Shown: piece after piece, positions 4,924 to 32,473 of the stretch
Position numbering within the stretch: position 1 is the stretch's first letter
Layout: each line of letters begins with the position of its first letter
DNA from: Candidatus Omnitrophota bacterium
GTDB lineage: Bacteria > Omnitrophota > Gorgyraeia > 2-01-FULL-45-10
Reading direction: 5' to 3'
DNA length: 64,000 nucleotides
NCBI GenBank assembly: GCA_043798375.1
Contig: JAZDOS010000029.1
Coordinates: 62,955 to 126,954 of the forward strand
Notes under the pieces: model-generated
The model's input: only the letters and a program-made list of their open reading frames with translations
Told to the model about the DNA's origin: nothing
The model's database searches: none
Program-made: the position numbers and the translations under genes

Positions 4924-4929
4924 TGCCGG

Positions 4930-5003: not shown

Positions 5004-5018
5004 GTTCTGTTGCTACTT

Positions 5019-18708: not shown

Positions 18709-19100
18709 TGAAAGTTCACGAAACCGAGATAAGGGTAAGATACCAGGAGACGGACAACATGGGTGTGGTCTATTACGCGAATTACTTAACCTGGTTCGAG
18801 GTGGCAAGGACCGAATATTTCCGGGCAGCGGGGCTGGTCTACCGCAAGCTTGAAGAGAAGGGGATATATCTTATGGTGGCGAGCGCTTCCTGCCAGTACA
18901 GGTCTCCTGCCAGGTATGACGATGTCGTTAAGCTCCATGCGTGGGTGCCGGAACTCAAAAATTCAAGCCTTAAATTCGCGTATAAATTATTTGTCGGCGA
19001 AAAAGTGATCGCGCAGGGAGAGTCTGTTCACGTATTTACCGACGCTCGGGGCAAGCCGACAAGAATACCCGAAGAAGTAAGAAGATTATTCCATCCCTAA
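18705..19100 (+). CDS. Acyl-CoA thioesterase, YbgC/4HBT hot-dog family
   Basis: ETEIRVRYQETDNMGVVYYANYLTWFEVARTEYF is the YbgC signature. Confidence 0.8.
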   Translation: MMKVHETEIRVRYQETDNMGVVYYANYLTWFEVARTEYFRAAGLVYRKLEEKGIYLMVASASCQYRSPARYDDVVKLHAWVPELKNSSLKFAYKLFVGEKVIAQGESVHVFTDARGKPTRIPEEVRRLFHP

Positions 19101-19559: not shown

Positions 19560-19760
19560 CCCGTTAGACCTCCTATTTAAGTAATCTAAGCCCCGTCAAT
19601 GGGTCTAACGGGACTCATCCCGTTAGAACCTCAATCTTGAAAATAAAAAAATAACACATTTTTTGCAATAAAACCCGTTTATATAATAAATACATATTCT
19701 GTTAACCCCGTTAGAAATGTAATTTCTAACGGGGTTAAAGGTTCTAACGGGACTCATGTT
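19559..19760. repeat. Cluster of CCCGTTAGA(A/C)C-type palindromic units
   Basis: CCCGTTAGACC..GGGTCTAACGGG, CCCGTTAGAACC..GGTTCTAACGGG and CCCCGTTAGAAATGTAATTTCTAACGGGG within a 200-bp intergenic region. Confidence 0.6.
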
Positions 19761-20584: not shown

Positions 20585-20684
20585 GCCTCACCCTCGAGTT
20601 GCAAATAAAATAAAATTATATTAAACTTGCTTTTTTTGAAATCCTTATGTATAATTAACGCATATCTTTAAAGGAGAGAAGCGT

Positions 20685-21053
20685 ATGTGGGACGGAATAA
20701 ACAGAAGAAAGTTTCCCAGGGCCAACTATAAATGCCTGATAAGCATAAAGAAACGCCTTACGGCGAAGACGATATCGACCGAGACGGAGAATATAGGCGC
20801 GGGCGGCATATGCGTCATCATAAAAGAAGACCTGGGCCTCTTTCAGGGCGTTGATGTTGAGCTGTACCTGGATGAGAACCGTCCTCCGATAAAGTCGGGC
20901 GGCACGGTGGTATGGGTGGTGAAGAAGTCTTTTTCCAAGAAGGGGAGCTATTTATACGATACGGGCATCGAATTCATAGACATAAGGCCGGAAGACAGGG
21001 AAAAGATATCCGAGCGGGTTGAAGAGATCCTTAAAAATCAGAGGCGTAAATAG
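20685..21053 (+). CDS. PilZ domain protein (c-di-GMP receptor), single domain
   Basis: RRKFPRANY..(RxxxR) and ENIGAGGICV (D/NxSxxG). 122 aa. Upstream TTGCTT-17-TATAAT and AAAGGAGAG RBS. Confidence 0.75.
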   Translation: MWDGINRRKFPRANYKCLISIKKRLTAKTISTETENIGAGGICVIIKEDLGLFQGVDVELYLDENRPPIKSGGTVVWVVKKSFSKKGSYLYDTGIEFIDIRPEDREKISERVEEILKNQRRK

Positions 21054-21092
21054 AAGAAACGCCTGGAAGAAACGCCTGGAAGAAACGCCTGG
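21054..21092 (+). repeat. 3 x 13-bp perfect tandem repeat GAAGAAACGCCTG
   Basis: Three exact tandem copies lying immediately 5' of a consensus promoter. Confidence 0.7.
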
Positions 21093-21098
21093 CACGGC

Positions 21099-21127
21099 TT
21101 GACAAATCATAGAAATTGTGTTATACT
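21099..21127 (+). promoter_or_regulatory. Sigma70-type promoter
   Basis: TTGACA, 17 nt, TATACT. GGAAGGGAGGTG RBS upstream of ATG 21167. Confidence 0.5.
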
Positions 21128-21166
21128 TGTGTAAATTAAAATCAGGAAGGGAGGTGAAATTAAAAA

Positions 21167-21505
21167 ATGAAAAACTTGTTAAAGGGTATAATTATATGTG
21201 TTGCTATATTGATGGTACTTAATATAGCCAATGCATGCTATGCTCAAGATATGGGTAAGAAGATCTACAGAGGCCTAGCGAATATTATAACGGGATGGAT
21301 AGAGCTTCCAAAGAATATATACGACACCAGCGTGGAAGATAATCCTCTCTCTGGTTTAACGATCGGTTTGGCGAAAGGCGTTGGGATGACGATAGTGCGC
21401 ACAGGCGCAGGAGTGTACGAAACGGTTACATTCCCGTTCCCGATTCCGGAAGGCTACGCACCGGTTCTGGAGCCAGAATTTGTTTTCAATAAGGCTGCGA
21501 AATAA
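21167..21505 (+). CDS. Exosortase-system-associated secreted protein (TIGR04073-like)
   Basis: Signal peptide followed by RGLANIITGWIELPKNIYDTSVEDNPLSGLTIGLAKGVGMTIVRTGAGVYETVTFPFP, which matches my recollection of that family. Confidence 0.55.
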   Translation: MKNLLKGIIICVAILMVLNIANACYAQDMGKKIYRGLANIITGWIELPKNIYDTSVEDNPLSGLTIGLAKGVGMTIVRTGAGVYETVTFPFPIPEGYAPVLEPEFVFNKAAK

Positions 21506-21515
21506 GCCCAATCCT

Positions 21516-21560
21516 GATTTCATGGATAAAAATAAGGGGATAGAAGAGATTTTATCCCCT
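21516..21560 (+). terminator. Rho-independent-terminator-like hairpin
   Basis: ATAAAAATAAGGGGATAGAAGAGATTTTATCCCCTTATTTTTAT: 15-bp perfect stem ATAAAAATAAGGGGA/TCCCCTTATTTTTAT (loop TAGAAGAGATTTTA) with a T-rich 3' side. Confidence 0.6.
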
Positions 21561-21671
21561 TATTTTTATCCGCCTTCGCAAACAGTAAGCAATAGAGCAG
21601 GTGCTTCGGCGGATTATATATCTTGATTAAACGGAATAATCACTATATAATACCAACAAAAAGAGGATAGC

Positions 21672-22022
21672 GTGACAGAGAGAAGAAAGTTTTTACGATT
21701 TGAAACCGCGTTGAACGCGATCTGTGACATGGTAAGTCATAATCACAGGGCTTCATATAAAGTAAGAAACATCTCCAAGGAGGGCGCCCTTCTTCTTGTA
21801 GATAAGAAACTCAGGGAAGGGGCCGAAATAAAGCTTTCGATGGACGTGCCCGGAGATAACGTTCCGATATTCGCGTCATGCGAAGTCGCATGGCAGAAAG
21901 GCGGCGAGAATTGCAATCTGTATGAAACCGGCGTCAGGTTCAAGAGTATCGACGGCCCGGACAGGGGAAGGCTCCTCGAATATATTTATCTGCAGTGGTT
22001 AAAATTACTGGATAAAAAATAA
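21672..22022 (+). CDS. PilZ domain protein, single domain
   Basis: GTG start. RRKFLRFE.. and RNISKEGALL motifs. 116 aa. Confidence 0.7.
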   Translation: MTERRKFLRFETALNAICDMVSHNHRASYKVRNISKEGALLLVDKKLREGAEIKLSMDVPGDNVPIFASCEVAWQKGGENCNLYETGVRFKSIDGPDRGRLLEYIYLQWLKLLDKK

Positions 22023-22157
22023 TATGAGCCCCGTTAGAAAATTTTCCTAATTCTACGTTATTTAATGCCACCGTATACATGAATTCTTTACTTAAATCAT
22101 GATTTAGAAATTTGTAAATTTTCTAACGGGGTGAGCGAAGAAAAGAGGCAAGATTAA

Positions 22158-22511
22158 ATGGAAAATGAGAAACCACAAAAGCCTGCTGAAACAGCTCCGA
22201 AAACCAAGGCCCCTCAGGCCGAAGCTAAGCCGGCCGAGAAGAAGGCTCGGGTGAAGAAGGAGAAGCCGGCAAACTGCGCGGGCTGTAACAAGTCCATAAG
22301 AAAAAAGCGCTGGTATTACAGGAACGGCAAAACTTACTGCACGAAGAGGTGCTGGCAGACGACTGAGAAAAAGATTAAAGAGGAGCATCTGGCGGCCGAA
22401 AAAGCAGCTGCTGAAAAGGCAGCCGCCGAGAAAGCCGCTCAAGAGAAGGCCGCAGATGAAAAAGCCCAAACAGATAAAGCGGCCGACGACACTCCGAAGC
22501 TTCAGGGGTAA
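22158..22511 (+). CDS. Lys/Ala-rich zinc-ribbon protein
   Basis: CAGCNKS..x15..CTKRC (four Cys) flanked by KP/AK-rich N-terminus and AAEKAAAEKAAAEKAAQEKAADEKA repeats. Possibly nucleic-acid binding. Confidence 0.45.
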   Translation: MENEKPQKPAETAPKTKAPQAEAKPAEKKARVKKEKPANCAGCNKSIRKKRWYYRNGKTYCTKRCWQTTEKKIKEEHLAAEKAAAEKAAAEKAAQEKAADEKAQTDKAADDTPKLQG

Positions 22512-22555
22512 AAGCCTCAAGCATTCAAACCGTATCTTAAGAACCTTCCTTATAT

Positions 22556-23011
22556 ATGGCTTCTCGGATAAATAAACCCATCCTGGTAAGCGCATGCCTT
22601 GCGGGCATAGACTGTACTTACAGGGGCAGGAACAAGCTCGTACCCTCTATTAAAAAAATGGTCGATGACGGCATTGCCATACCCGTGTGCCCTGAGGTCA
22701 TGGGTGGGATGGGAATCCCCCGCGAAAATTCCGAGATTGTTGGCGGCGGCGGTATGGACGTCCTGATGAAGAGGGCTCGCGTTATAACAATCTCAGGCAA
22801 GGATGTTACCAAAATTTATATTAAAGGCGCGAAGGCAGTCCTTGCGATCGCCGGAATTTTCGGCGTCAGGAAGGCCATTTTAAAATCGAAAAGCCCGGCC
22901 TGCGGGGCGGGGCGGATCTACGACGGGTCTTTTACGAAGAAGCTTAAAAACGGATCCGGCGTAACGGCAAGCCTGCTTTGTCAAAAAGGCGTAAAGGTCT
23001 ATAGTGCTTGA
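22556..23011 (+). CDS. DUF523 family protein (TudS-like Fe-S protein)
   Basis: PILVSACLAGIDCTYRG..CPEV..SPACGAG is the conserved DUF523 Cys pattern. Confidence 0.65.
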   Translation: MASRINKPILVSACLAGIDCTYRGRNKLVPSIKKMVDDGIAIPVCPEVMGGMGIPRENSEIVGGGGMDVLMKRARVITISGKDVTKIYIKGAKAVLAIAGIFGVRKAILKSKSPACGAGRIYDGSFTKKLKNGSGVTASLLCQKGVKVYSA

Positions 23012-23044
23012 AAATTTAGGTAAAAAGGTGGTAGAATAGGGGTC

Positions 23045-23395
23045 ATGGACAAAGAATTTTGCCTGTTCTGCGGAATAGCGAAAAAAGAGATCCCTGCGAA
23101 GATCGCCTATGAGGACGACGCGGCATTGGCATTTGAAGACATAAATCCCAAGGCGCCGGTCCATCTTCTCGTCATACCGAAGCTGCATATAGAAAGGGTG
23201 TCGGATATCCGCGAAGACGGCTTTGAGCTGGTGGGCCATCTGATATCGATAGCAAATAGACTTGCCGAATCCAGGAAGATCAAGGAATCGGGATATAGGC
23301 TAATTTTAAACTGCAACAAAGACGCCGGTCAGGAAGTTTTTCACCTGCACCTGCATCTTCTCGGCGGAAGGAAGTTTTCATGGCCGCCGGGGTAA
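23045..23395 (+). CDS. HIT-family nucleotide hydrolase (Hint-like)
   Basis: CLFCGI..DINPKAPVHLLVIPK..HLHLHLLGG histidine triad. Confidence 0.85.
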   Translation: MDKEFCLFCGIAKKEIPAKIAYEDDAALAFEDINPKAPVHLLVIPKLHIERVSDIREDGFELVGHLISIANRLAESRKIKESGYRLILNCNKDAGQEVFHLHLHLLGGRKFSWPPG

Positions 23396-23414
23396 CGATA
23401 GGAGCCTGACATAA

Positions 23415-23780
23415 ATGGCCGCTAATGAAAGAAGGTCTTTTCCCCGTATAAAGGATGAGGGGCTGTCTCTTAAGCTTAATGCGGGTGATTTCGACACCAC
23501 AACCCATACCCTGAATATAAGCGCATCGGGAATATACTGCAAGGTTGACAGGGAAATGCCTCTCATGTCCAGGGTGCGGGTAGCGCTGGAGCTGCCGGAG
23601 TCATCAGGCGAAAACCGGTCCGTAAAAAACCTCGAGGTCGACGGCGTGGTAGTGAGGGGACACCCTGTCATAATCGACGGCGTGATAAAACATTACGATA
23701 TCGCGATATTTTTCGACAGCCTCTCCCCGAAAAACAGGGATATGCTCCAGGATTATATCTCAAGAACAAAAAAGAAATAG
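23415..23780 (+). CDS. PilZ domain protein, single domain
   Basis: RRSFPRIK and LNISASGIYC motifs. 121 aa. Confidence 0.7.
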   Translation: MAANERRSFPRIKDEGLSLKLNAGDFDTTTHTLNISASGIYCKVDREMPLMSRVRVALELPESSGENRSVKNLEVDGVVVRGHPVIIDGVIKHYDIAIFFDSLSPKNRDMLQDYISRTKKK

Positions 23781-23789
23781 GCGGTTCTT

Positions 23790-24272
23790 ATGTTCACGCT
23801 CGTAGGGCTTTTCTTTATACTGCTTCTTTCGATGATACTCTATATGCTTTACAGAACCGAGCTTACCGCAACGAAGAATAACCGCCATCACGCAAAGGTC
23901 GAGGAGTATTGGACGGGAAAAGAGAGAAGAAAATATACCCGTTTCAAAAAAACGCTGGACGTCATATACACAGTCGCGAAGAAGCCGCATCTTTCCAGTC
24001 GCGGCCATACGATAGATATATCCGAAGGCGGCATGAAACTGGTCCTCGACGAAAAGCTTCCGAAGGGCGCAATAATGGACCTCAAAATTTCGATTCCCGG
24101 CTCATCCCAGGACACGGATGTGGAGGGCGAAATCATCTGGAGCGAAGAGGCGAATTACGATAAACTCTCCGGCAAAAGGCAGTTCTATTACGGCATAAAG
24201 TTCCTGTACATCAAAGAACCGTCCGGAAAACATTTAAGCGACTACATCCGCTCTATCTCCGTACAACCTTAA
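23790..24272 (+). CDS. Membrane-anchored PilZ domain protein
   Basis: N-terminal TM LVGLFFILLLSMILYML, then RRKYTRFK and IDISEGGMKL. Confidence 0.7.
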   Translation: MFTLVGLFFILLLSMILYMLYRTELTATKNNRHHAKVEEYWTGKERRKYTRFKKTLDVIYTVAKKPHLSSRGHTIDISEGGMKLVLDEKLPKGAIMDLKISIPGSSQDTDVEGEIIWSEEANYDKLSGKRQFYYGIKFLYIKEPSGKHLSDYIRSISVQP

Positions 24273-24295
24273 CTCATGCGACAGGCCTTCGAAAA

Positions 24296-24826
24296 ATGGG
24301 AACGATTAAACATCCGGACAAAGTAAAGCTTATCGCAGGCCTTCTCTCCGGAGATGCGGCCCTATTCCAGAAGGTTAAGAAAAGGCTGGAAGAAATATGC
24401 GGAGCCGTTGATCTTGAAAGCGGAATACTGGATTTTGGCCATACGGACTATTACCGCAAGGAGATGGGCGGGGATCTAAAAAGAATATTTTACAGCTTCA
24501 AGAGGCCGGCCGGCCTGGCCGATATCTATAAAGTAAAATTGCGCACCAACCTTATCGAGAAACGGTTTCTTGCAAACGGCAAAAGGGCCGTTAATATAGA
24601 TCCCGGATACCTGAACCTCTCAAAGCTTGTCGTCTTTTCCACAAAAGACTACACCCATAGGATATATTTAAACAAAGGTATCTGTGCCGAGGTAACCCTG
24701 TTCTATAAAGACGGCACTTACAATCCGTGGCCGTGGACATACCCGGATTATAAAACAGGCCCTTATATAAAATTTTTTAATTCGGTCCGCGCGATATATA
24801 AAGAAGGGGGCAAGGCAACTTTATGA
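24296..24826 (+). CDS. DUF4416 family protein
   Basis: 176 aa starting KHPDKVKLIAGLL. Assignment is from recollection of the family. Confidence 0.5.
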   Translation: MGTIKHPDKVKLIAGLLSGDAALFQKVKKRLEEICGAVDLESGILDFGHTDYYRKEMGGDLKRIFYSFKRPAGLADIYKVKLRTNLIEKRFLANGKRAVNIDPGYLNLSKLVVFSTKDYTHRIYLNKGICAEVTLFYKDGTYNPWPWTYPDYKTGPYIKFFNSVRAIYKEGGKATL

Positions 24827-24981
24827 TTATAAAAAAGAAGAGCCTGATAGTGGCGCTCGTTTCCGGCTTTATCATATCCCTGGTGCTCATACTTACCTTG
24901 ATAGGGTATGCCGCATACCTGGAACTCAAAAACGAGAACTTTATAAGGTCCTACGAATGCGCTATGGAGAAGCTTAAGTGA
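24823..24981 (+). CDS. Putative small membrane protein (52 aa)
   Basis: ATGA overlap with the upstream stop. Hydrophobic LIVALVSGFIISLVLILTLIGYAAY. Its stop overlaps the next GTG start. Below the ORF-track cutoff. Confidence 0.3.
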   Translation: MIIKKKSLIVALVSGFIISLVLILTLIGYAAYLELKNENFIRSYECAMEKLK

Positions 24982-26660
24982 AAAAAATTTACATAACCGT
25001 TATCTGCCTCTTTGCCGCAAGTATCGTCATATTCATATCATCGTTCGTTTATCTCGACAAAAATAAGCGTAAAACCTATTACTATGTAATAAATTCGTCC
25101 GGCCGCGATATCGGCATTATAAAGGTGGATAAATTCGTAACGGAGGATAAGCTCATATATAAAACGGCCGCCCTGGTGCCTTATGGCGAAATTATCACGG
25201 AAAACAGGTCCAAGATCGTCTATGACCGAAAATACAACCTCGAGAGCTACGCGGCCGAGAGAACGGCGAACGGCGCTGTTGAGACAATATCCGTCGAAAA
25301 AAAAGGCGGCGGCGTGTCGTTCGTATCGAGGCTTAATTCGTGCTTCGCGTTTCTCGAAGATATTCCCACAAGGAAAGAGACTTTCATATTCGAAGAGAAT
25401 TCGCCCGCGACCTATTTGCCGATAATAGAGAACTACGATTTCGCAAGGGGAAGGAGCCAGGGGTTCAGCGCAATATCCTGCTTCATGGACTGGGAATTGC
25501 CGCCGATGAAAAGGTTCGTCACGCTCACCTCGATAAGGGACGAATACTTAAAGATAGGGCGTAAAAAGATAAAAACCGAGAATCTGCTCTTAAAGATAAA
25601 AAATTATCCTCAAGGCAGCGTCTGGGTGGCTAAAATAGACCGGTCGCTTATAAAGATAGAGATGCCGGCTGTTGCCCTTAAAATAACAAGGACATTCTCT
25701 CCATGGGAACTTACGTCAAAAAATTATATCGGCCGGAGCAAAGATTATACGTCCAGGGATATTGCGTTCAAAAATAACGGAGTTAACCTATCCGGCACGC
25801 TGACCTTTCCTCTGAAAGAAGGTAAATACCCGGCCGTCCTTCTCGCCGGCCCTGATGGGCCTGAAGACCGCAATCTCAGGGGCCTCTTCGCTGATTTAGC
25901 CGAGACCCTGTCAAGAAACGGTCTTACGGTATTGAGGTTTGACAAGCGCGGAGTCGGTTCGAGCGACGGAAGCTTGGCGTCTCTTTCGGAAGATGAAGAG
26001 ACGGACGACCTTGCCAGGGCCCTGGATCTTCTGGCTGCCCAAAAAGAGGCTGATCCGCAAAGCCTCTTCATTTTAGGCCATTCGCGCGGATGCTTTCGCG
26101 CCTTGAAACTCGCATCCGAAAAAAATTACATAAAGGGGCTCATCCTGATGGCGCCGGAAATATACTCCAGGTACGGCGCCAAGGAAAATTTTGAAAATTA
26201 TGACAAAATATTTTTTGACAAAAAGTGGGGCCAGGACTATTTAAAATCCGTGAAGAAATCTCTGGAAGAGATAAAGGACAGGGCGTCGCGATCCAAGGGG
26301 AACTGGGCTTTCATCCTGTGGAAAAGGTGTTTCGTAAAGAGGGTCAAGGAAGAGATGAACAGAATTCCATCCCTTTTCATAAAAAATGTAAAAGTTCCGG
26401 TACTCATCCTTCAGGGAAGGCAAGACAGCCCCTCCTCGATGGAATCGTCATTCCTTCTCGACAGGATGCTTGAAGATGGCGGCAATATTAGCCACGCGTT
26501 GACCTATTACGGCTATCTGGGCCGCTACTTTGGCAAGAAGGTAAACGACGGCATATACAAAATACATTATGCGGCCGATAAAGACGTCCTGGACAATATC
26601 ATAAACTGGATTGCCAAAATGGCAGCCGCGCCGCAAGAAACTTCCCCGCAAACAGCGTAA
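24978..26660 (+). CDS. Membrane-anchored alpha/beta-hydrolase (S9/dienelactone-hydrolase-like)
   Basis: N-terminal TM. C-terminal AVLLAGPDGPEDRN..RFDKRGVGSSDG..GHSRG nucleophile elbow. Confidence 0.65.
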   Translation: MKKIYITVICLFAASIVIFISSFVYLDKNKRKTYYYVINSSGRDIGIIKVDKFVTEDKLIYKTAALVPYGEIITENRSKIVYDRKYNLESYAAERTANGAVETISVEKKGGGVSFVSRLNSCFAFLEDIPTRKETFIFEENSPATYLPIIENYDFARGRSQGFSAISCFMDWELPPMKRFVTLTSIRDEYLKIGRKKIKTENLLLKIKNYPQGSVWVAKIDRSLIKIEMPAVALKITRTFSPWELTSKNYIGRSKDYTSRDIAFKNNGVNLSGTLTFPLKEGKYPAVLLAGPDGPEDRNLRGLFADLAETLSRNGLTVLRFDKRGVGSSDGSLASLSEDEETDDLARALDLLAAQKEADPQSLFILGHSRGCFRALKLASEKNYIKGLILMAPEIYSRYGAKENFENYDKIFFDKKWGQDYLKSVKKSLEEIKDRASRSKGNWAFILWKRCFVKRVKEEMNRIPSLFIKNVKVPVLILQGRQDSPSSMESSFLLDRMLEDGGNISHALTYYGYLGRYFGKKVNDGIYKIHYAADKDVLDNIINWIAKMAAAPQETSPQTA

Positions 26661-26689
26661 TAACGCTTCGATTAATTTCGGCGATTTTA

Positions 26690-26970
26690 GGGTCCTGCCG
26701 TCCTTCGATTTAACTCAAGGACATGCCCCGAGCGTAGTCGAGGGGCCGCTCCCTCACGGAATCCCCGTAGGGATTGTGCTCAAGCGGGACGTTAAAATCG
26801 CGAGCGGGCATGGTTTTTTGCCCTTACCAATACAACCTGCGAGGTTTGCTGGCAGCTATCTACCTGTTAACCTCGCAGGTTGTATTGGCTATGCAAAAAG
26901 AGCGAGCGATTTTACCGAGCAAAATTTTCCTCGCTGGGGAAAATTTTGCGATCCCGCGAAGCACAATCCC
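26690..26970. repeat. Nested inverted-repeat element, copy B
   Basis: Same core as 15955-16161, with the 20-bp stem CCAATACAACCTGCGAGGTT/AACCTCGCAGGTTGTATTGG but a different 22-nt loop. Additionally bounded by imperfect TIRs GGGATTGTGCTCAAGCGGGACG (26771) and CGATCCCGCGAAGCACAATCCC (26949). Confidence 0.6.
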
Positions 26971-27075
26971 GAAAGGGGATTCTTTTTAGCAGCGAAAAAA
27001 TTCGATTTCATTTACATTGACGTTGCTTTTTTTGTATGCTATATTTAATCGAAATGCGAAACGAGGTTTTGACCC

Positions 27076-27462
27076 ATGACAAAAAAAGAAGAGTTCATTG
27101 ATAGAAGAGGCTCTATTCGGCTGAGGATCCCCGTAAGCATTGCCTATCAAACATCAGGCAATGGCAGAGTTCATACGGTTACGGCCAAAGACATATCCGC
27201 CGAAGGCGCGAGGTTCGAGGCCCACGACAAGCGCCTCAAAGAATCCGATATTCTGGATATGAAGATAGGCATCCCTGAGATATCCGGAGACGGGGTCCGC
27301 GCAACGGGCGCCGTTATATGGAAAAAACGTTTATCGCTTGAGGATAAGTCGCCGTTCGATATCGGCATCGAATTCGGCGAGATAGCGGAAGACGACAAAA
27401 ACGGTTTTCTTAAATTTTTATGTGATTTTATATATAAACTACCGGAGGAAAAAAAGAGATGA
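27076..27462 (+). CDS. PilZ domain protein, single domain
   Basis: DRRGSIRLRIP and AKDISAEGARF motifs. 128 aa. Confidence 0.7.
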   Translation: MTKKEEFIDRRGSIRLRIPVSIAYQTSGNGRVHTVTAKDISAEGARFEAHDKRLKESDILDMKIGIPEISGDGVRATGAVIWKKRLSLEDKSPFDIGIEFGEIAEDDKNGFLKFLCDFIYKLPEEKKR

Positions 27463-27791
27463 GGAAGATAATGGTTTGTGCGCCAATATTTGCGCTGGCC
27501 TTGATTTGCGGATGTTCCGTGATCCAGGTGCCGAATGCGGAGGACGTCATCAGCCATCCTCTCGGAACCGAATCGATAAAGATAGGGATGTCCAAAGACG
27601 AGGTCGAATCTATTTGGGGTAAGCCCAACGATGTCAGGATGGTTGAGAATAAGGAGAAGTGGCAAGGGGCGGCCCATGAAGTGTGGATCTACCGCGCCCA
27701 GTACGGCTCTATACCTGTCGACGCCGGATACCTCTCTAAAACCAAGAAGCTCTACTTCGACGGCAACAATCTGACCGAAATAGGGGAATAG
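27459..27791 (+). CDS. BamE/SmpA/OmlA-like outer-membrane lipoprotein
   Basis: Lipobox ALALICGCS. IGMSKDEVESIWGKPND resembles the SmpA_OmlA motif. Confidence 0.5.
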   Translation: MRKIMVCAPIFALALICGCSVIQVPNAEDVISHPLGTESIKIGMSKDEVESIWGKPNDVRMVENKEKWQGAAHEVWIYRAQYGSIPVDAGYLSKTKKLYFDGNNLTEIGE

Positions 27792-27800
27792 GCGGCTACA

Positions 27801-28169
27801 ATGATGAGAATGATGTGCAAATCAAAAATACACAGGGCCGTCCTGACAAAGGTCGACCTTCACTACGAAGGCAGCATAGGCATCGATAAAAACCTTCTCG
27901 AAATAGCCGATATCCATCCCGGCGAGATCGTCCAGGTCGTGAACGTAAATAACGGCGCGCGGTTTGAGACATACGCGATAGAAGAAAAGGCCGGCTCAGG
28001 TGAAATCGGCCTGTATGGAGCGGCGGCGCATCTTGGAAAGGCAGGCGATATAGCCATAATCCTGTCCTACGCGCTTGTTGAGGATAAAGAGGCAAAATCG
28101 ATGAAGGTCAGGGTCGTGCGTGTAGGCCAAAACAACAAACCCGTCAAAAGTCAGGCATGTCAGCATTAA
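27801..28169 (+). CDS. panD: Aspartate 1-decarboxylase
   Basis: [34 protein letters not shown] is the PanD signature including the Gly-Ser processing site. Confidence 0.85.
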
Positions 28170-28672
28170 AGATCAGGATATTCCCCGATTCAATTCTTCG
28201 TAAAAAGGCAAAGAAGGTCCCGCATATAGGCGACATCGAAAAAAAAGAGCTCTCCGAAATGGCCAAGGCGATGTATCTTGCCAGGGGCGTCGGGCTTGCG
28301 GCCGTCCAGGTCGGCATAGACAAGCAGCTTGCCGTTATCGATATAGGCGACGGCCTTATCAAGATGGCCAATCCCGCAATAATGAAGAAAGAGGGCAGCC
28401 TTGCCCTGGAAGAAGGGTGCCTCAGCGTACCGGAGGTATACGTGAAGGTGAGGAGGGCTAACTCTATCATTGTCAATTACTTGAATGAATCAGGCGAGGC
28501 TATGCAGCTCCGGGCTACGGGGCTTCTCGCAAGGGCCGTTCAACATGAAATAGACCACCTTTGCGGCACACTTATCATAGATTACACAAACCCCGTAAAA
28601 AAGATGATTATCAAACGAAGGCTTTCCAGGAAGAAGCCGAGCCGGGGACAAAATAACACGGGGACAAAATAA
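28157..28672 (+). CDS. def: Peptide deformylase
   Basis: [10 protein letters not shown] (motif 1), EGCLSVP (motif 2), QHEIDHL (motif 3). Confidence 0.9.
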
Positions 28673-28674
28673 CC

Positions 28675-28703
28675 TTGACAAATCAGGGCTTATATGCTAT
28701 ATT
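28675..28703 (+). promoter_or_regulatory. Sigma70-type promoter for cspA with long 5' UTR
   Basis: TTGACA, 17 nt, TATATT. About 110-nt leader before ATG 28818, as is typical of cold-shock mRNAs. Confidence 0.5.
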
Positions 28704-28817
28704 TTAAGCAATTGTAAGCGAGTATATTTGGTGAAGAAGATTTACATCTAAAATATATGCCATTTGAAGCTTTAAAAAGCTTTGGGTGGCATTTTTTGAT
28801 GGGGGGTGAAAGGATAG

Positions 28818-29021
28818 ATGGCACAGGGAACGGTAAAATGGTTCAATGATAAGAAGGGTTTCGGGTTCATAGTAGCCGATACCGGTAAAGACGTATTTGT
28901 CCACCACTCCGCTATCGAGGGTGAAGGCTATAAAAGCTTGAAAGAAGGGGATAAGGTCCAGTTTGAGATCGTAACTGGCCCAAAGGGTGAGCAGGCGACA
29001 AAGGTCGTAAAGCTATCCTAA
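28818..29021 (+). CDS. cspA: Cold-shock protein, CspA family
   Basis: [15 protein letters not shown] (RNP1) and VFVHHSAI (RNP2). Confidence 0.9.
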
Positions 29022-29166
29022 TATTCTTATGCTTCGACGCATCCCGCCGAAGCATTTACTCTATTGCCGGTTGATTGCGAAGGCGGATGAGGGCTTCTCA
29101 TCGAAAACCGTCGGTTTCAGGGGAAGGACTGTTTCTAATAGGGCTTACCGGGGGATAGATAATTGT

Positions 29167-29613
29167 ATGGAGCTATATCAAAAGATTGAGGAAGATGTCA
29201 GGCTGGCGCTGAAAAAAGGCGAAGCTGTCAAATTGTCGGTCTTAAGGATGCTCTTGTCGGAGGTAAAAATGTTCGAGATCGAGAAGAGCGTCAAGAGGGC
29301 CGGTGAGGCGGATATATTGCAGATTATACAGCGCCAGATAAAGCAGCATAAGGATTCCATAGAGCAGTTCGAGAAGGGTAAACGCGCTGATCTCGCCGGT
29401 AAAGAGCTGGATGAGCTCAAGATCCTCGAGTCTTACATGCCTGAACAGATGGGGGAAGTTGAATTGACGGATATTGTCAGAGAGGCGATAAAGACAAGCG
29501 GCGCGGCGACCAAATCTGAGGTCGGCAAGGTCATGAAAATAGCCATGGAAAAGGCAAAAGGAAAAGCTGATGGCAGGGCCGTAAGGGATATTGCCATGAA
29601 GATGCTGAAATAA
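29167..29613 (+). CDS. yqeY: GatB/YqeY domain protein
   Basis: MELYQKIEEDVRLALKKGEAVKLSVLRMLLSEV..ELDELKILESYMPEQM. The internal ATG 29167 gives the canonical ~148-aa length. The upstream part of the ORF-track call looks like a spurious extension. Confidence 0.75.
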   Translation: MELYQKIEEDVRLALKKGEAVKLSVLRMLLSEVKMFEIEKSVKRAGEADILQIIQRQIKQHKDSIEQFEKGKRADLAGKELDELKILESYMPEQMGEVELTDIVREAIKTSGAATKSEVGKVMKIAMEKAKGKADGRAVRDIAMKMLK

Positions 29614-29689
29614 TGCGAGAGGATATATTTATTCTCTTGCTATAAGAATGGTTTTATAGTAATATAAGTTCATACGAAAGGAGGGAAAG

Positions 29690-30085
29690 ATGAAAAGTAA
29701 ATTATTCACATGCGCGTGTGTCGCATTGGCTTTGTCTTTTATGCTAACAGGCATATCCTATTCCGCGCCGGAAAAAGAGACAGCCGGCGCTAAGGCAAAA
29801 AGTTTCTGGCAAAAGCTTTTCAACTATCCGGCTAATGTGACGAATGAATCAGTCGCAGTCGTTTCGGATACCGCGAAGCGCGGAACGGCCGTAGTGACTA
29901 AAGAGGTTAAGACCGTAGGCCAGGTAACATCCGGAGAAACCGCGAAGACGAAAGAGCTCATTACCGAACCGATAACCGGCACTGCCGAAACTGCGGTAAA
30001 GGCGGTCGAGGAAATGGTTGCCGTTCCTGTAAATGCGGCCAAGGAAGAGCCTCAAGCTGTCCAGCCGCCGGCTGAACAGAAATAA
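29690..30085 (+). CDS. Hypothetical secreted protein
   Basis: Signal peptide MKSKLFTCACVALALSFMLTGISYSA. T/A/V/K/E-rich. Followed by hairpin AAAAAGCCATA..TATGGCTTTTT (30093-30135), terminator-like. Confidence 0.45.
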   Translation: MKSKLFTCACVALALSFMLTGISYSAPEKETAGAKAKSFWQKLFNYPANVTNESVAVVSDTAKRGTAVVTKEVKTVGQVTSGETAKTKELITEPITGTAETAVKAVEEMVAVPVNAAKEEPQAVQPPAEQK

Positions 30086-30177
30086 GACAGAACTTGTCTG
30101 GAAAAAGCCATATTCTTACTTGAAGAGAGGGTATGGCTTTTTCTACGGCAGCACCGGGTAAACATTAACAAACTATC

Positions 30178-30693
30178 ATGAAATTGCGATCGGTTGCTTT
30201 TTTTACAGCGCCGGCTGTCATCGCGACCATAATATTATACCAGCCGGTCCGGGTTGCTTTTTTTAAGCTGGCCGAACCTTACTTTGCCTGTCCCATCAAG
30301 AGCGATCCGAATAATCTTACGATCAGGAACGATTCGCTCGGCGAAGGCGGTTATGGCGCGAAGAGGCGTAACGGCAGGTTCCATGCCGGCGTGGATATAC
30401 TGGCGAACGTCGGAATACCGGTATACGCTTCGAAAACAGGCCTTGCCTACTTCGGAAATGTCCCGACCGGTTACGGAAAATATGTGATGATTCATCACCC
30501 CGACGGCACCCAGACATTTTATGGCCACCTTTCGGACTGGAACGGAAAGGCGCCAAGAAAAGTGCGTAGGGGCGAGTTGATAGGGTTTGTGGGAAAGACC
30601 GGCAATGCCGCAAATAAGCTCATACAGCCGCACCTGCATTTTGAAATCAGAAAAGACGGGGAGCCCGTCGATCCGCGGGGGCTCATGAGATAA
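30178..30693 (+). CDS. M23-family metallopeptidase
   Basis: HAGVDILANVGIPVYA..HLHFEIRKDGEPVDP. Confidence 0.8.
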   Translation: MKLRSVAFFTAPAVIATIILYQPVRVAFFKLAEPYFACPIKSDPNNLTIRNDSLGEGGYGAKRRNGRFHAGVDILANVGIPVYASKTGLAYFGNVPTGYGKYVMIHHPDGTQTFYGHLSDWNGKAPRKVRRGELIGFVGKTGNAANKLIQPHLHFEIRKDGEPVDPRGLMR

Positions 30694-30709
30694 AAGTGGA
30701 GGGTATGAT

Positions 30710-30847
30710 ATGAAAACAGTTGCCATTATCTCGATAATGATATTTTTATGCCTTGGATTAACCGGGTGCGGCGAAACCATTTCCGGCGCAGGAAAGGATG
30801 TCAACAGGATGGGTAAGGGGGTTTCCACCTTCTTCTTCAGGCAGTAA
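30710..30847 (+). CDS. Entericidin EcnA/B-family small lipoprotein (45 aa)
   Basis: MKTVAIISIMIFLCLGLTGCGETISGAGKDVNRMGKGVS. Lipobox followed by the entericidin-like G-x-G-KD..G motif. Below the ORF-track cutoff. RBS GGAGGG upstream. Confidence 0.55.
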   Translation: MKTVAIISIMIFLCLGLTGCGETISGAGKDVNRMGKGVSTFFFRQ

Positions 30848-30860
30848 TAACAGGGTTCAT

Positions 30861-31574
30861 ATGTCAATACGTTTAAGAGAAGTTGACAGCGTAAACATAC
30901 TCGATATCGAAGGCAAAATCGATATCAACTCATCGGATCTCATAGAGATGGTGGGTTGGCTTGTCAATTCCGGCAAGGTGAACATAATCTTCAACCTCGA
31001 AAACACCGACACCGTAGATTATAACGGCCTCTCGATACTGTCCATAGCATACAAAAACGTAACGAACCATAAAGGCAGATTGAAACTGATCAATGTCCCG
31101 CTATCCGTCATCGAACTTCTGAAGGCGGTAAAGCTTGAGGCCGTCTTTGAGATATACGCCGAGGAGGATGCCGCCGTCAGCAGTTTTTTTGACGAGGGGA
31201 TAGACAAGCTCTCCTTAAGAAGGAGATTTCAGCGCCTTGAAATCCATCTGAATGTTTTGTACGGGATAGCCGGCGGCCAAAAGAAGCCGAAGCTATTTGA
31301 CGGGAAAGTACTCAACTTGAGCGCCGCCGGAATCTATATCTACACCCCGTATACTTTCCCCATAAACAGCATGCTCGACCTGGAACTCAATGTGCCGGGC
31401 ATGGGTAAATCTCTCGGGGCCACAGGGAAGGTAAGCTGGCTTGCCGATAAGGAGATACAGCCGCATGCCTATCCCGGGATGGGCGTATCTTTTGTGCACC
31501 TTACCCCGGAAAAAGAGAAGGCGATAGCCGACTTCATAGAAAAAAATGTAACGCACAGGGCCGACTCGTTATGA
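30861..31574 (+). CDS. STAS (anti-sigma-factor-antagonist-like) domain fused to a PilZ domain
   Basis: N-terminal SpoIIAA-like STAS (VNILDIEGKIDINSSDL..KLINVPLSVIELLKAVKL). C-terminal PilZ (RRRFQRLEI..LNLSAAGIYI). Start ATG 30861, chosen to avoid overlap with ecn. Confidence 0.65.
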   Translation: MSIRLREVDSVNILDIEGKIDINSSDLIEMVGWLVNSGKVNIIFNLENTDTVDYNGLSILSIAYKNVTNHKGRLKLINVPLSVIELLKAVKLEAVFEIYAEEDAAVSSFFDEGIDKLSLRRRFQRLEIHLNVLYGIAGGQKKPKLFDGKVLNLSAAGIYIYTPYTFPINSMLDLELNVPGMGKSLGATGKVSWLADKEIQPHAYPGMGVSFVHLTPEKEKAIADFIEKNVTHRADSL

Positions 31575-32473
31575 GCCCCGACGCCAAAATCGAGTCAAAA
31601 AATAACATCCTTGCGGCCGCGCGGACCGAAAAAGGCCTTGCGGGATGCGATTTGAAAAAAGCGGACCTTTCGCAAGCCGATCTGTCGGGAGCGCATATGT
31701 TCGATGCCTGCCTGGAAGGGGCCAGTCTCGTAGGCGTAAATCTAGCCGGCTGCGACCTTACTCACTGCAACATGGCCAACGCGGATCTCACGAAGGCAAA
31801 TCTTACCGGCGCAAGGCTGTGGAACGCGGACCTGTCCGGCGCCAATCTTACGGAGTGCGATCTCACCGGAGCCGACCTGTGGAACGCCAAACTTTTCAAT
31901 GTTAAATTATGGCAGGCGAATTTTGAAAGGGCGAAGTCCATTTCAAGGAGAAGTTTTTCCAGCCAGGCGGGGTTGCTCGACAGTGTAAAAATAAACGAGA
32001 CGGGCTCGGCCCAGGCGGAGGATTCCTACAGAAACCTTAAAGCCTACTTCATGGCCCGGGGGATGTATAATGACGCCGGCTGGGCGTCGTTTAAAGAGAA
32101 GGTCATGGAGAGGTTCTCCTTAAAAAAGAGCGGTAATTTGAAATATTTCCCGAGCCTCGCCATGAGCGCGTTGTGCGGTTACGGTGAGAAGCCCTTCAGG
32201 ATAATATTCGCCTCGCTATTCACCATAATTTTATTCGCCCTGTTCTTCTATTCGCATAACGCGATAGAATATACGGGTATCCGGGAATCGCCGCTTCGGT
32301 GGGGCGATTACCTATATTACAGCACAATAACGTTCACTACCGTCGGTTACGGCGATATCGTCCCAAAACCGCAAACCCTGTTCAGGCTCATGGCCGCCTT
32401 CGAAGCCTTTATGGGGGTATTTTTGACCGGATTATTCATATTTACATTGGCGCGCAAGTACTCCGCCAGGTAG
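31571..32473 (+). CDS. Pentapeptide-repeat protein fused to a 2-TM potassium-channel pore domain
   Basis: N-terminal tandem A(D/N)LxxA(N/D)Lxx pentapeptide repeats. C-terminal TM-P-loop-TM with selectivity filter TTVGYGD. 4-nt overlap with the upstream STAS-PilZ gene. Confidence 0.7.
   Translation: MSPDAKIESKNNILAAARTEKGLAGCDLKKADLSQADLSGAHMFDACLEGASLVGVNLAGCDLTHCNMANADLTKANLTGARLWNADLSGANLTECDLTGADLWNAKLFNVKLWQANFERAKSISRRSFSSQAGLLDSVKINETGSAQAEDSYRNLKAYFMARGMYNDAGWASFKEKVMERFSLKKSGNLKYFPSLAMSALCGYGEKPFRIIFASLFTIILFALFFYSHNAIEYTGIRESPLRWGDYLYYSTITFTTVGYGDIVPKPQTLFRLMAAFEAFMGVFLTGLFIFTLARKYSAR

Follow-up and report, generated by a model that had tools for sequence, protein, structure and literature searches.

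Single-domain PilZ proteins are described in the literature as trans-acting adaptors with partner-specific C-termini, and an Arg or Lys ahead of the RxxxR motif has been linked to dimeric c-di-GMP binding (10.1101/2020.02.11.943704). Omnitrophota reportedly carry small pilZ homologues frequently, some of them downstream of giant genes, and GGDEF domains have been reported within the giant proteins (10.1101/2023.11.21.568195). The window analysed here, a 64-kb stretch of a contig from the MAG of an uncultivated Candidatus Omnitrophota bacterium, carries six PilZ genes within 20685-31574. The first-pass annotation knew of no described system organised in this way, and our literature search likewise found no published description of this PilZ block. 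We favour the view that the block belongs to the core genome of a large Candidatus Omnitrophota clade and encodes six anciently diverged PilZ receptors.

20685-21053, + strand: PZ1, stand-alone PilZ, 122 aa; RRKFPR, NIGAGG; PF07238 50.3 bits
21672-22022, + strand: PZ2, stand-alone PilZ, 116 aa; RRKFLR, NISKEG; PF07238 54.6 bits
23415-23780, + strand: PZ3, stand-alone PilZ, 121 aa; RRSFPR, NISASG; PF07238 32.8 bits
23790-24272, + strand: PZ4tm, N-terminal TM helix plus PilZ, 160 aa; RRKYTR, DISEGG; PF07238 59.5 bits (residues 45-154)
27076-27462, + strand: PZ5, stand-alone PilZ, 128 aa; RRGSIR, DISAEG; PF07238 36.4 bits
30861-31574, + strand: STASPZ6, STAS-PilZ fusion, 237 aa; RRRFQR, NLSAAG; PF01740 41.3 bits, PF07238 42.0 bits

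All six ORFs exceeded the PF07238 gathering score of 22.5 bits, each where the first-pass annotation had placed it in its count of six genes in 11 kb. As read from their sequences, the set comprises four soluble stand-alone PilZ proteins, one membrane-anchored protein and one STAS fusion, whose 237-aa form agrees with the NCBI gene call. The statement that all retain both c-di-GMP-binding motifs was a slight overstatement: RRxxxR is present in all six and D/NxSxxG in five, while PZ1 has Gly for the canonical Ser, and NxGxxG recurs in 23/23 of its orthologues. Both motifs were found in every orthologue of PZ2 (25/25), PZ3 (28/28) and PZ5 (26/26), and 139 of the 140 orthologues in the six families carried RxxxR together with [DN]x[S/G]xxG; we therefore regard these as ancient paralogues under purifying selection. 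Each protein would bind c-di-GMP through RRxxxR and D/NxSxxG, putatively so for PZ1. Because Arg or Lys precedes RxxxR in most of the 140 orthologues, the bound ligand is probably an intercalated c-di-GMP dimer. The six might instead be degenerate adaptors that do not sense c-di-GMP, like the Xanthomonas PilZ XAC1133, as the Gly in PZ1 could suggest; moreover, the nearest solved sequence relative of the PilZ half of STASPZ6 is a non-binding Xanthomonas PilZ (3cnr, E = 6e-4). We consider this very improbable, since non-binding PilZ proteins lack the motifs retained here and the same PilZ half structurally matches c-di-GMP-bound Alg44 and PA4608.

HMMs built from these PilZ sequences picked out no seventh PilZ when all window ORFs of ≥50 aa were searched. 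Outside the interval, Pfam scans that took in most ORFs of ≥150 aa in the window, with all gene-like ones among them, likewise yielded none. Outside the block, no PilZ gene occurred in ~297 kb of DNA (53 kb of window and 243 kb of locus flanks, the latter themselves syntenic and hence not independent samples), compared with 6 + 138 inside. By approximate gene counts, PilZ genes made up ~6/22 inside the interval and 0/~40 outside (Fisher p = 0.0012). The Poisson probability of at least six PilZ genes in 10.9 kb was 3e-12 to 6e-7 for 10-80 PilZ genes per 3 Mb, a density that is assumed and is not this organism's own PilZ count. The reported abundance of small pilZ homologues in Omnitrophota (10.1101/2023.11.21.568195) would fit a cluster arising by chance in a PilZ-rich genome, without significance. 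However, the probability stays at ~6e-7 even for the highest density, the flanking DNA is devoid of PilZ genes, and the same six orthogroups recur in a constant order across 34 genomes. Chance co-localisation, to which we give almost no credence, is effectively refuted by this synteny.

The comparison covered 34 species-representative Omnitrophota genomes anchored on the 560-aa hydrolase of the block. Synteny in all of them extends over a ~25-kb neighbourhood and takes in its housekeeping genes (AddA, DHQ synthase and GNAT through to NAD synthase); each block holds 4-6 PilZ genes, which are thus not scattered in relatives but keep the same neighbours. Across these genomes hydrolase identity falls from 86% to 28%, and Def has a median identity of 60%. 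Independent gene calls with precomputed Pfam matches in one relative (L036) gave the same six PilZ genes. Its conservation in no fewer than 34 related species marks the arrangement as an old feature of the lineage that has been under selection, not a chance pile-up.

Pairwise identity among the six window proteins is only 17-27%, so they are not recent duplicates, as the first-pass annotation had argued. Their orthologues form six monophyletic orthogroups, with 41-74% identity within groups and 18-23% between them. Judged by these sequences, the six families are older than the divergence of the sampled genomes, and the between-group identity is too low to favour local duplication over separate recruitment.

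The other genes of the block and its surroundings are as follows.

10332-11849, + strand: GAF-HD-GYP c-di-GMP phosphodiesterase candidate; HD_5 (PF13487) 144 bits, plus GAF
19086-19559, - strand: 157-aa TM protein, paired with the ExeA-like ATPase
19754-20584, - strand: ExeA-like XrtA/PEP-CTERM-associated ATPase; TIGR03015 324.4 bits, cut-off 324.5
21167-21505, + strand: T4073, small exported TIGR04073-family protein; NCBIfam 102.5 bits, cut-off 50
22158-22511, + strand: CysKA, Cys4 protein (C-x2-C-x19-C-x3-C) with Lys/Ala/Glu-rich repeats; sub-threshold family matches only
22556-23011, + strand: DUF523/2-thiouracil desulfurase, cytoplasmic housekeeping; PF04463 138.9 bits
23045-23395, + strand: HIT hydrolase, cytoplasmic housekeeping; PF01230 99.2 bits
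24296-24826, + strand: DUF4416 protein; PF14385 197.5 bits
24823-24981, + strand: 52-aa remnant, N-terminal TM segment of a ~192-aa membrane protein; matches relatives' ORFs
24978-26660, + strand: membrane-anchored alpha/beta hydrolase, 560 aa; Pfam Hydrolase_4, Abhydrolase_1
27459-27791, + strand: OsmE/BamE-like lipoprotein; sub-threshold, BamE 18.4 bits, OsmE 23.2 bits
27801-28169, + strand: PanD, housekeeping; Pfam match (133-146 bits across PanD, Def and YqeY)
28157-28672, + strand: Def, peptide deformylase, housekeeping; Pfam match in the same range
28818-29021, + strand: CspA, housekeeping; Csp 98.4 bits
29029-29613, + strand: YqeY, housekeeping; Pfam match in the same range
29690-30085, + strand: exported 131-aa protein with export leader
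30178-30693, + strand: M23 peptidase; PF01551 94.2 bits
30710-30847, + strand: entericidin-like lipoprotein (Ecn), 45 aa; entericidin 16.5 bits, below cut-off
31571-32473, + strand: pentapeptide-repeat protein with two-TM K+-channel-type pore; PF00805 95.6 bits, PF07885 58.2 bits

The first-pass annotation had described the PilZ genes as interleaved with envelope and secreted protein genes, and proposed that each receptor gates a different envelope or secretion output. Exported and membrane proteins are indeed present, including the TIGR04073-family protein, but cytoplasmic housekeeping functions account for about half of the interleaved genes (HIT, PanD, Def, Csp, YqeY, DUF523), and DUF4416 is not an envelope gene either. 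The BamE-like and entericidin genes are there with family scores below threshold; one M23 peptidase lies inside the interval and a second at ~5 kb in the window; the SPOR gene (16211-16756) is 4 kb outside. The true start of YqeY is probably near 29167, as the protein has 148 aa in L036.

At the upstream edge, PZ1 shows the highest conservation among the PilZ proteins of the block (median identity 79.5% over 22 orthologues; that of Def in these genomes is 60%), and all of its 559 database relatives with a source organism name are from Omnitrophota. It is divergent from the pair formed by the ExeA-like ATPase and the 157-aa TM protein, with which it has a 100-bp intergenic region in common; L032 apart, the pair adjoins PZ1 in all loci with upstream coverage. 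Unusual conservation is common to PZ1, T4073 (median 85.5%) and the ATPase (median 75.7%). A promoter-like site (21099-21127) precedes T4073, and a second TIGR04073 paralogue, missing in the window, lies immediately upstream of PZ5 in 10 relatives. The GAF-HD-GYP protein, 8.8 kb upstream of PZ1 (the ~9 kb of the first-pass annotation), carries the canonical HD and HHENYDGSGYP (HHExxDGxGYP) motifs; together with the reported GGDEF domains, it is in line with c-di-GMP turnover.

Another promoter-like site (21623-21651) stands ahead of PZ2. CysKA occurs in 25 loci, always after PZ2 where PZ2 is present (median gap 21 nt), and persists in genomes without it; PZ2 is missing from the deep clade L030/L031/L033. 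PZ3, found in every locus with covered flanks, follows HIT at a median gap of 26 nt and precedes PZ4tm at a median of 1 nt; DUF4416 comes a median of 9 nt after PZ4tm or, where PZ4tm is lost, a median of 13.5 nt after PZ3. The 52-aa remnant matches the N-termini of 192-197-aa ORFs in L002, L015, L023 and L033; this membrane protein is intact in most relatives, and L036 has a 55-aa ORF in its position. The conserved N-terminal half of the hydrolase is unannotated, and all of the protein's 198 relatives with a source organism name are from Omnitrophota. PZ5, behind a promoter-like TTGACG-17-TATATT (27017-27045), heads the string PZ5-lipoprotein-PanD-Def. At the downstream edge, median gaps are 15.5 nt from M23 to Ecn and 12 nt from Ecn to STAS-PilZ, and the end of STAS-PilZ and the start of the pentapeptide channel gene share 4 nt. 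This channel is present only in some relatives, and fills the slot of a lost STAS-PilZ directly in L003, L008 and L032.

Several of these arrangements could suggest that each PilZ is a dedicated c-di-GMP switch for the product next door, making the locus an envelope-output switchboard: for example, PZ1/PZ2 with TIGR04073, PZ3/PZ4tm with DUF4416 and the hydrolase, PZ5 with the lipoprotein, and STAS-PilZ with M23/entericidin or the pentapeptide channel. The same neighbours turn up in 34 genomes, a TIGR04073 paralogue adjoins PilZ at two places, and the conservation of PZ1, T4073 and the ATPase is in keeping with such pairing. PZ5 runs into the lipoprotein gene, with a stop/start overlap of 4 nt in the window and of 8-28 nt, from alignment-inferred starts, in 20/20 loci with both. 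Gaps in PZ3-PZ4tm-DUF4416 and M23-Ecn-STAS-PilZ are just 0-15 nt, and these micro-units, the former with the hydrolase, persist even in the deepest genomes (L030, L033) despite other insertions and losses. However, the whole ~25 kb is syntenic, unrelated housekeeping genes included, and therefore conserved adjacency is not specific to PilZ and its neighbours. Furthermore, signal or lipoprotein leaders can be read from the sequences of T4073, the OsmE-like lipoprotein, the 131-aa protein, M23 and the entericidin-like peptide; being exported, these products would lie across the membrane, beyond the reach of a soluble cytoplasmic PilZ, which five of the six are. Four genomes (L003, L016, L029 and L032) have PZ5 but no lipoprotein gene, and two (L023 and L026) show the reverse; these genes were lost independently and are not co-inherited. 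CysKA outlasts PZ2, and most genomes with STAS-PilZ lack the channel. We therefore consider neighbour-by-neighbour gating unlikely and the earlier functional interpretation only partly supported; the PZ5/lipoprotein overlap and micro-unit persistence could still reflect neighbour-specific functions.

A different connection links two of the receptors. PZ4tm and STAS-PilZ are both present in 12 genomes and both absent from 5; STAS-PilZ occurs alone once (L005) and PZ4tm never (Fisher p = 0.0007, uncorrected for phylogeny). On a neighbour-joining tree of the hydrolase, PZ4tm was lost at three or more separate places, nearly always along with STAS-PilZ. In the AF2 model of STASPZ6 (pLDDT 80), two folded domains are joined by a disordered linker bearing RRxxxR. 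The STAS half structurally matches RsbV/SpoIIAA (TMt 0.84-0.87), and no PDB chain in our structure search spans both halves. Residues D53, Y54 and G56 are invariant, giving D-Y-N-G in place of the D-S-S-G of SpoIIAA, whose phosphorylatable serine is absent. PZ4tm and STAS-PilZ might thus form one partner-switching module, with the other four PilZ proteins independent: the serine-less STAS would be controlled by c-di-GMP on the fused PilZ, and PZ4tm would be a membrane docking or competing site. The co-occurrence and co-losses, the anti-sigma antagonist fold, the invariant D-Y-N-G and the modelled position of RRxxxR in a flexible linker are consistent with this. Nevertheless, few genomes were sampled and the tree is a single-gene one, L005 has STAS-PilZ without PZ4tm, and Pfam scans found no anti-sigma kinase (HATPase_c) or PP2C phosphatase in the window, leaving such a module doubtful.

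On balance, we lean towards a cluster of separate c-di-GMP adaptors that act in trans, are passed on vertically and are spread over at least four inferred transcription units. Delimited solely by intergenic distances and promoter-like sites, these units would be PZ1 alone, divergent from the ATPase; PZ2-CysKA; HIT-PZ3-PZ4tm-DUF4416-hydrolase; PZ5-lipoprotein-PanD-Def; and M23-entericidin-like-STAS-PilZ, and some receptors would therefore be co-expressed with envelope proteins. Most likely, the genes cluster because they duplicated locally long ago and were then kept in an unusually stable chromosome stretch, and not because they form a single multi-part machine. The ExeA-like ATPase is the likeliest candidate partner for PZ1, and STAS-PilZ may act as a c-di-GMP-driven partner switch replacing phosphorylation, possibly linked to PZ4tm. 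By analogy, each ligand-bound PilZ would act in trans on its own partner through a family-specific surface and C-terminal helix, in a manner resembling MapZ and HapZ of Pseudomonas.

All six open reading frames that the first-pass annotation had called as PilZ genes scored above the Pfam PF07238 gathering score of 22.5 bits, which served as the cut-off for membership.

PilZ genes of the block (20685-31574) and their PF07238 scores
20685-21053, PZ1, soluble stand-alone PilZ, 50.3 bits
21672-22022, PZ2, soluble stand-alone PilZ, 54.6 bits
23415-23780, PZ3, soluble stand-alone PilZ, 32.8 bits
23790-24272, PZ4tm, 59.5 bits over residues 45-154, behind a hydrophobic N-terminal helix
27076-27462, PZ5, soluble stand-alone PilZ, 36.4 bits
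30861-31574, STAS-PilZ fusion, 42.0 bits, with a STAS domain in front at 41.3 bits

The annotation had assigned both c-di-GMP-binding motifs to every one of these proteins. Alignment showed that RRxxxR is common to the six domains and that D/NxSxxG occurs in five, the exception being PZ1, whose second motif reads N-I-G-A-G-G, with glycine in place of serine. This NxGxxG form was found in 23/23 PZ1 sequences, and the other five proteins and their orthologues matched (D/N)xSxxG exactly; across the whole set, 139 of 140 orthologues matched RxxxR followed by [DN]x[S/G]xxG. The residue before RxxxR was Arg or Lys in most of the 140, a feature tied to dimeric rather than monomeric c-di-GMP binding (10.1101/2020.02.11.943704). 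In the AF2 model of the STAS-PilZ fusion, residues 128-230 formed six strands and a helix (pLDDT about 80) that superposed on the PilZ structures of Alg44 and PA4608. The fold of the five stand-alone proteins was assigned by HMM match (for PZ1, AF2 reached a pLDDT of 44 from 23 sequences that were ≥79% identical), and a sequence search of the PDB with these five returned nothing significant (E > 0.3). Given these motifs, the six are very unlikely to be degenerate PilZ proteins that do not bind c-di-GMP; PZ1, with its glycine, is a putative binder.

Within the window, PilZ genes were detected in the block only. When all window ORFs of ≥50 aa were searched with HMMs built from the six domains, and then from the 140 orthologous domains, no additional PilZ appeared; outside the interval, Pfam scans covered most window ORFs of ≥150 aa and all gene-like ones among them, again without a PilZ match. 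By approximate gene counts, PilZ proteins are encoded by about 6 of the 22 genes in the interval and by 0 of an estimated ~40 beyond it (Fisher p = 0.0012), the flanks that serve as background being themselves syntenic. If a density of 10-80 PilZ genes per 3 Mb is assumed, a 10.9-kb stretch would contain six with a Poisson probability of 3e-12 to 6e-7, and a chance co-localization is hardly credible.

The neighbors listed in the first-pass annotation held up in part. T4073, the exported TIGR04073 protein at 21167-21505, exceeded the NCBIfam cut-off clearly (102.5 bits vs 50), and the SPOR gene, at 16211-16756, proved to be no part of the interval; neither the BamE/OsmE-like nor the entericidin-like call reached its family threshold. 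The interval also encodes a DUF523/2-thiouracil desulfurase, HIT, DUF4416, PanD, peptide deformylase (Def), CspA, and YqeY by Pfam. The GAF-HD-GYP protein reported upstream was borne out by a 144-bit match to HD_5 (PF13487) and by the motifs ILHDAGE and HHENYDGSGYP read in its sequence; it thus carries both the profile and the HD and GYP motifs of an HD-GYP phosphodiesterase. An Rfam scan of the window detected no c-di-GMP riboswitch, its sole match being a tRNA. Two gene starts call for comment. The longest ORF of the second M23 peptidase (4920-5492, plus strand, TTG start at 4920) overlaps a tRNA on the same strand (4930-5000; Rfam, 69 bits), and the true peptidase start must therefore lie 3′ of the tRNA. 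The YqeY ORF (29029-29613, plus strand) is probably over-extended at its 5′ end, with a likely start near 29167, because Pfam aligns it only from residue 51 onward and the orthologue in a related locus (L036) is 148 aa long.

As a synteny anchor we used the 560-aa membrane-anchored alpha/beta hydrolase at 24978-26660, which has about 200 relatives; all those with a source organism name are Omnitrophota. Scanning its alignment against one genome per GTDB species yielded 34 Omnitrophota loci, with hydrolase identities ranging between 28% and 86%, and a single match that was unrelated. Each locus ORF was assigned to its best window gene, and the functions of the optional genes were read from the sequences by eye.

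Gene order shared among the loci (parentheses, some genomes only)
AddA, SPOR, DHQ synthase, GNAT, thioesterase, then, on the minus strand, a 157-aa TM protein and the ExeA-like ATPase (19754-20584 in the window)
PZ1, TIGR04073, PZ2, CysKA, (flavin-reductase-like), DUF523, (DUF362-like), HIT
PZ3, PZ4tm, DUF4416, (192-aa TM protein), hydrolase, (second TIGR04073), PZ5, lipoprotein
PanD, Def, Csp, YqeY, 131-aa exported protein, M23, entericidin-like, STAS-PilZ
(pentapeptide channel), radical SAM, GAF-ANTAR, NAD synthase

A PilZ HMM identified 138 PilZ ORFs in the 34 loci, all on the hydrolase strand and at positions matching the window. On the L036 contig, an independent gene call with precomputed Pfam assignments recovered these six PilZ genes as well, with no PilZ gene in the adjoining 10 kb. 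The array first noticed in a single genome therefore recurs, with the same PilZ genes beside the same neighbors, in 34 Omnitrophota species genomes, and conservation in 34 or more species strengthens the original observation. A mobile or defense island was ruled out by the even GC content (0.45-0.50), the core-gene neighbors (ATP synthase, H+-PPase, Mrp/complex-I-like, and DHQ synthase genes lie near the block), and the synteny in 34 genomes. Across window positions ~12200-36000 and loci L002-L034, the order of at least 30 genes over about 25 kb, comprising several unrelated transcription units, is kept, and it persists even where hydrolase identity has fallen to 28-50%; chromosome organization in the sampled Omnitrophota clade seems unusually stable.

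A neighbor-joining tree of 140 PilZ domains resolved six groups, each monophyletic, with median identities of 41-74% within groups and 18-23% between them, and therefore the six families split before the genomes diverged. This agrees with the earlier statement that the genes are not recent duplicates: together with the 17-27% identity among the six window proteins, the monophyletic orthogroups exclude recent tandem duplication. The genomes are distant from one another, with median identities to the window of 60% (Def), 70% (PanD), and 44% (hydrolase). The reading we favor, and consider probable, is that the block encodes six distinct c-di-GMP PilZ adaptors, inherited vertically within a stable core region of Omnitrophota chromosomes and brought together by old local duplication. 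Each adaptor would act in trans on its own partner, and the clustering would reflect the old duplication and subsequent retention, which an identity of ~20% over 100 residues does not separate from independent recruitment.

Gene spacing was taken as the gap from a stop codon to the next alignment-inferred start across the loci. The PZ1-T4073 and T4073-PZ2 gaps were about 85-92 nt and that between PZ2 and CysKA was 21 nt; HIT, PZ3, PZ4tm, and DUF4416 followed one another at 26, 1, and 9 nt. The PZ5 and lipoprotein genes overlapped in 20/20 loci having both, the lipoprotein-PanD and PanD-Def gaps were 22 and 3.5 nt, and those from M23 to the entericidin-like gene and on to STAS-PilZ were 15.5 and 12 nt. 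Strong sigma-70-like matches were found upstream of T4073, PZ2, HIT, PZ5, and Csp. Spacing and promoter-like sequences point to a minimum of four or five transcription units, and in some of these a PilZ gene would be co-expressed with genes for exported proteins.

The first-pass annotation proposed that each receptor controls a separate envelope or secretion function, read here as gating of its neighbor. A functional link is favored by micro-units that survive in the deepest genomes, L030 and L033, despite insertions elsewhere: the ATPase divergent from PZ1-T4073; PZ3-PZ4tm-DUF4416-TM protein-hydrolase; PZ5-(lipoprotein)-PanD-Def; and M23-entericidin-like-STAS-PilZ. It is also favored by the TIGR04073 paralogues, which adjoin PilZ genes at two places in the block. 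However, synteny is region-wide, and adjacency is therefore not specific to PilZ-neighbor pairs. Many neighbors are predicted to be exported, whereas all PilZ proteins but PZ4tm are soluble; read by eye, the N-termini of T4073, the 131-aa protein, and M23 resemble signal sequences, and lipobox-like sequences occur in the OsmE-like and entericidin-like proteins. Moreover, phyletic patterns separate the tightest pair: PZ5 occurs without the lipoprotein in L003, L016, L029, and L032 (PZ5-PanD gap 3-39 nt in three of them), and the lipoprotein occurs without PZ5 in L023 and L026. The array itself was upheld and its first interpretation partly supported; neighbor-specific gating by each PilZ protein appears unlikely.

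Several other features of the interval vary among the relatives. Directly before the hydrolase, a 52-aa ORF (24823-24981, plus strand), whose stop overlaps the hydrolase start, corresponds to the N-terminal TM stub of a membrane protein of ~192 aa, which most relatives (L002, L015, L023, L033) encode in full between DUF4416 and the hydrolase; L036 has a similar 55-aa stub, and the 52-aa form suggests a lineage-specific truncation. Between the hydrolase and PZ5, positions 26661-27075 form a 415-bp non-coding spacer, where relatives have 49-169 bp or the second TIGR04073 gene; no remnant of that paralogue was found in it. The spacer carries a 12-bp perfect inverted repeat (CAACCTGCGAGG ... CCTCGCAGGTTG) without an Rfam match and a strong promoter-like TTGACG-17-TATATT at 27017-27045. 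In L023 (12243-14540), L026, L030, and L033, a ~765-aa polytopic membrane protein with what looks like a spermidine-synthase-like domain is encoded between the hydrolase and the lipoprotein/PanD genes, taking the place of PZ5 in L023 and L026. CysKA (22158-22511, plus strand) is a 117-aa protein with AAEKAAAEKAAAEK-type Lys/Ala/Glu repeats and cysteines spaced C-x2-C-x19-C-x3-C, a pattern that we take to match a TRASH/YHS-type metal-binding motif; family searches with it gave sub-threshold matches only. Its gene always follows PZ2 and is retained where PZ2 has been lost.

Three genes at the start of the block are unusually conserved. Median identity to the window orthologue was 79.5% for PZ1, 85.5% for TIGR04073, and 75.7% for the ExeA-like ATPase; across 19754-21505 in loci L002-L034, these values are far above those of Def and the hydrolase, and neither a small signaling adaptor nor a small exported protein is usually so well conserved. 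That PZ1 is about 80% identical where Def is about 60% points to c-di-GMP signaling as a central and strongly constrained function. PZ1 and the ATPase gene are divergent and share a common 100-bp intergenic region. Against NCBIfam TIGR03015, an XrtA/PEP-CTERM-associated family, the ATPase scored 324.4 bits, 0.1 bit under the cut-off of 324.5.

At the other end of the block, the N-terminal 110 residues of the 237-aa STAS-PilZ fusion matched PF01740 at 41.3 bits against a cut-off of 22.6. The closest analogues of this half are RsbV and SpoIIAA (Foldseek TMt 0.84-0.87 with the AF2 model, pLDDT 80), and the RRxxxR motif sits in a disordered linker between the two domains of the model. Unlike SpoIIAA and RsbV, the protein carries a PilZ domain, and the serine that SpoIIAB/RsbW phosphorylate is replaced by an invariant D-Y-N-G loop. 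This loop, V-D-Y-N-G-L, with D53, Y54, and G56 invariant in 30 sequences, stands where SpoIIAA has the phosphorylated Ser of D-S-S-G, a correspondence made by eye. Pfam scans found no HATPase_c kinase or PP2C phosphatase gene in the 64-kb window, so that both marks of a SpoIIAA/RsbV-type antagonist, the D-S-S-G serine and a cognate kinase/phosphatase, are missing there; the fusion was therefore not assigned to the SpoIIAA-type antagonists, whose defining phospho-serine it lacks. It is reasonable to suppose that c-di-GMP, and not phosphorylation, regulates it. Foldseek matched no PDB chain with both STAS and PilZ domains. The fusion has 215 close relatives, of which all those with a source organism name are Omnitrophota, and the full architecture recurred in roughly 25-30 clusters (50% identity) among the best 150 matches of a profile search of 1.84 billion proteins.

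PZ4tm and STAS-PilZ tend to occur together. Both are present in 12 genomes (the window and 11 other loci) and both absent from five (L003, L006, L008, L016, L032); STAS-PilZ occurs alone once and PZ4tm never (Fisher p = 0.0007, with no correction for phylogeny). On the neighbor-joining tree of the hydrolase, the two genes were lost together in at least three places. This correlated loss would fit a c-di-GMP partner-switch module formed by the two proteins, a reading that we consider unlikely; it is compatible with our preferred one, of adaptors with partners in trans, for the other four PilZ proteins. Next to STAS-PilZ, its start overlapping the STAS-PilZ stop by 4 nt in the window genome, lies an unusual gene (31571-32473, plus strand) in which about 100 residues of pentapeptide repeats are fused to a two-TM K+-channel pore (Ion_trans_2), with a weak, sub-threshold NCBIfam match to the anti-phage Hailong effector HalA. 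The gene directly fills the lost STAS-PilZ slot in L003, L008, and L032 and is also present in L006.

A broader but improbable interpretation is that of a lineage-defining Omnitrophota receptor island in which several receptors are wired to adjoining envelope or secretion functions. As parts of this joint reading, PZ1, the ExeA-like ATPase, and TIGR04073 would form a c-di-GMP-controlled secretin or export-assembly step, and the serine-less STAS domain would be driven by c-di-GMP via its fused PilZ domain, together with PZ4tm. If true, the block would be a compact c-di-GMP control center for the surface of uncultivated, possibly host-dependent bacteria.

PilZ adaptors are the commonest c-di-GMP receptors, and partners are known for only a minority of them; their genes are usually scattered, so that genomic position says nothing about what they do. 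In a wide range of Omnitrophota, to our knowledge a phylum without a cultured representative, six distinct PilZ families share a single conserved block. The block offers a compact candidate set for partner specificity: PZ1/ATPase/TIGR04073, PZ4tm/STAS-PilZ, and a c-di-GMP-switched STAS domain. Should none of these links hold, the block would still be a useful lineage marker and a warning that, where synteny is high throughout, conserved adjacency does not show that neighboring genes are functionally paired.

The nearest parallels in mode of action would be single-domain PilZ adaptors such as MapZ and HapZ. Those of Pseudomonas aeruginosa (MapZ/PA4608, HapZ, PA0012, PA4324) likewise fall into separate sequence clusters, each thought to dock in trans on a different partner. 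As far as is known, their genes are dispersed around the chromosome, whereas the six window genes lie within 11 kb in conserved order. By sequence, none of the five stand-alone window proteins significantly matched a solved or characterized PilZ.

The XrtA/PEP-CTERM system shares with the block a TIGR04073 protein above its family cut-off; the ATPase fell 0.1 bit short of the TIGR03015 cut-off. The hydrolase matched exosortase-associated hydrolase 1 weakly (40.6 bits, cut-off 168), and no exosortase gene or PEP-CTERM protein was seen within the 64-kb window; the link between exosortase-type genes and PilZ genes is one of adjacency only. Literature on TIGR04073, STAS-PilZ, Omnitrophota PilZ/c-di-GMP, and PilZ gene clusters yielded no description of the block, and the searchable literature none of a STAS-PilZ protein.

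Within the phylum, giant genes of Omnitrophota are followed in conserved context by one or several small pilZ homologues (West-Roberts et al., 10.1101/2023.11.21.568195), the order being giant gene, pilZ, then solute-binding proteins, transporters, and glycosyl hydrolases. In contrast, the block lies among core housekeeping genes, and the window holds no giant gene, its largest ORF being 1028 aa. Tandem pilZ duplication has been proposed as a route to YcgR-like and PilZ-PilZ proteins (Galperin and Chou, 10.1101/814665), and PZ3/PZ4tm, which adjoin at a median gap of 1 nt with stop and start often overlapping, look like an unfused pair of this kind. The two are, however, separate in 18/18 loci having both and share only about 19-21% identity, and the motifs are intact in both, whereas one copy usually loses them in fused proteins. 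Every PilZ gene of the block is a new member of a known family; what is unusual is the conserved array and the serine-less STAS-PilZ fusion.
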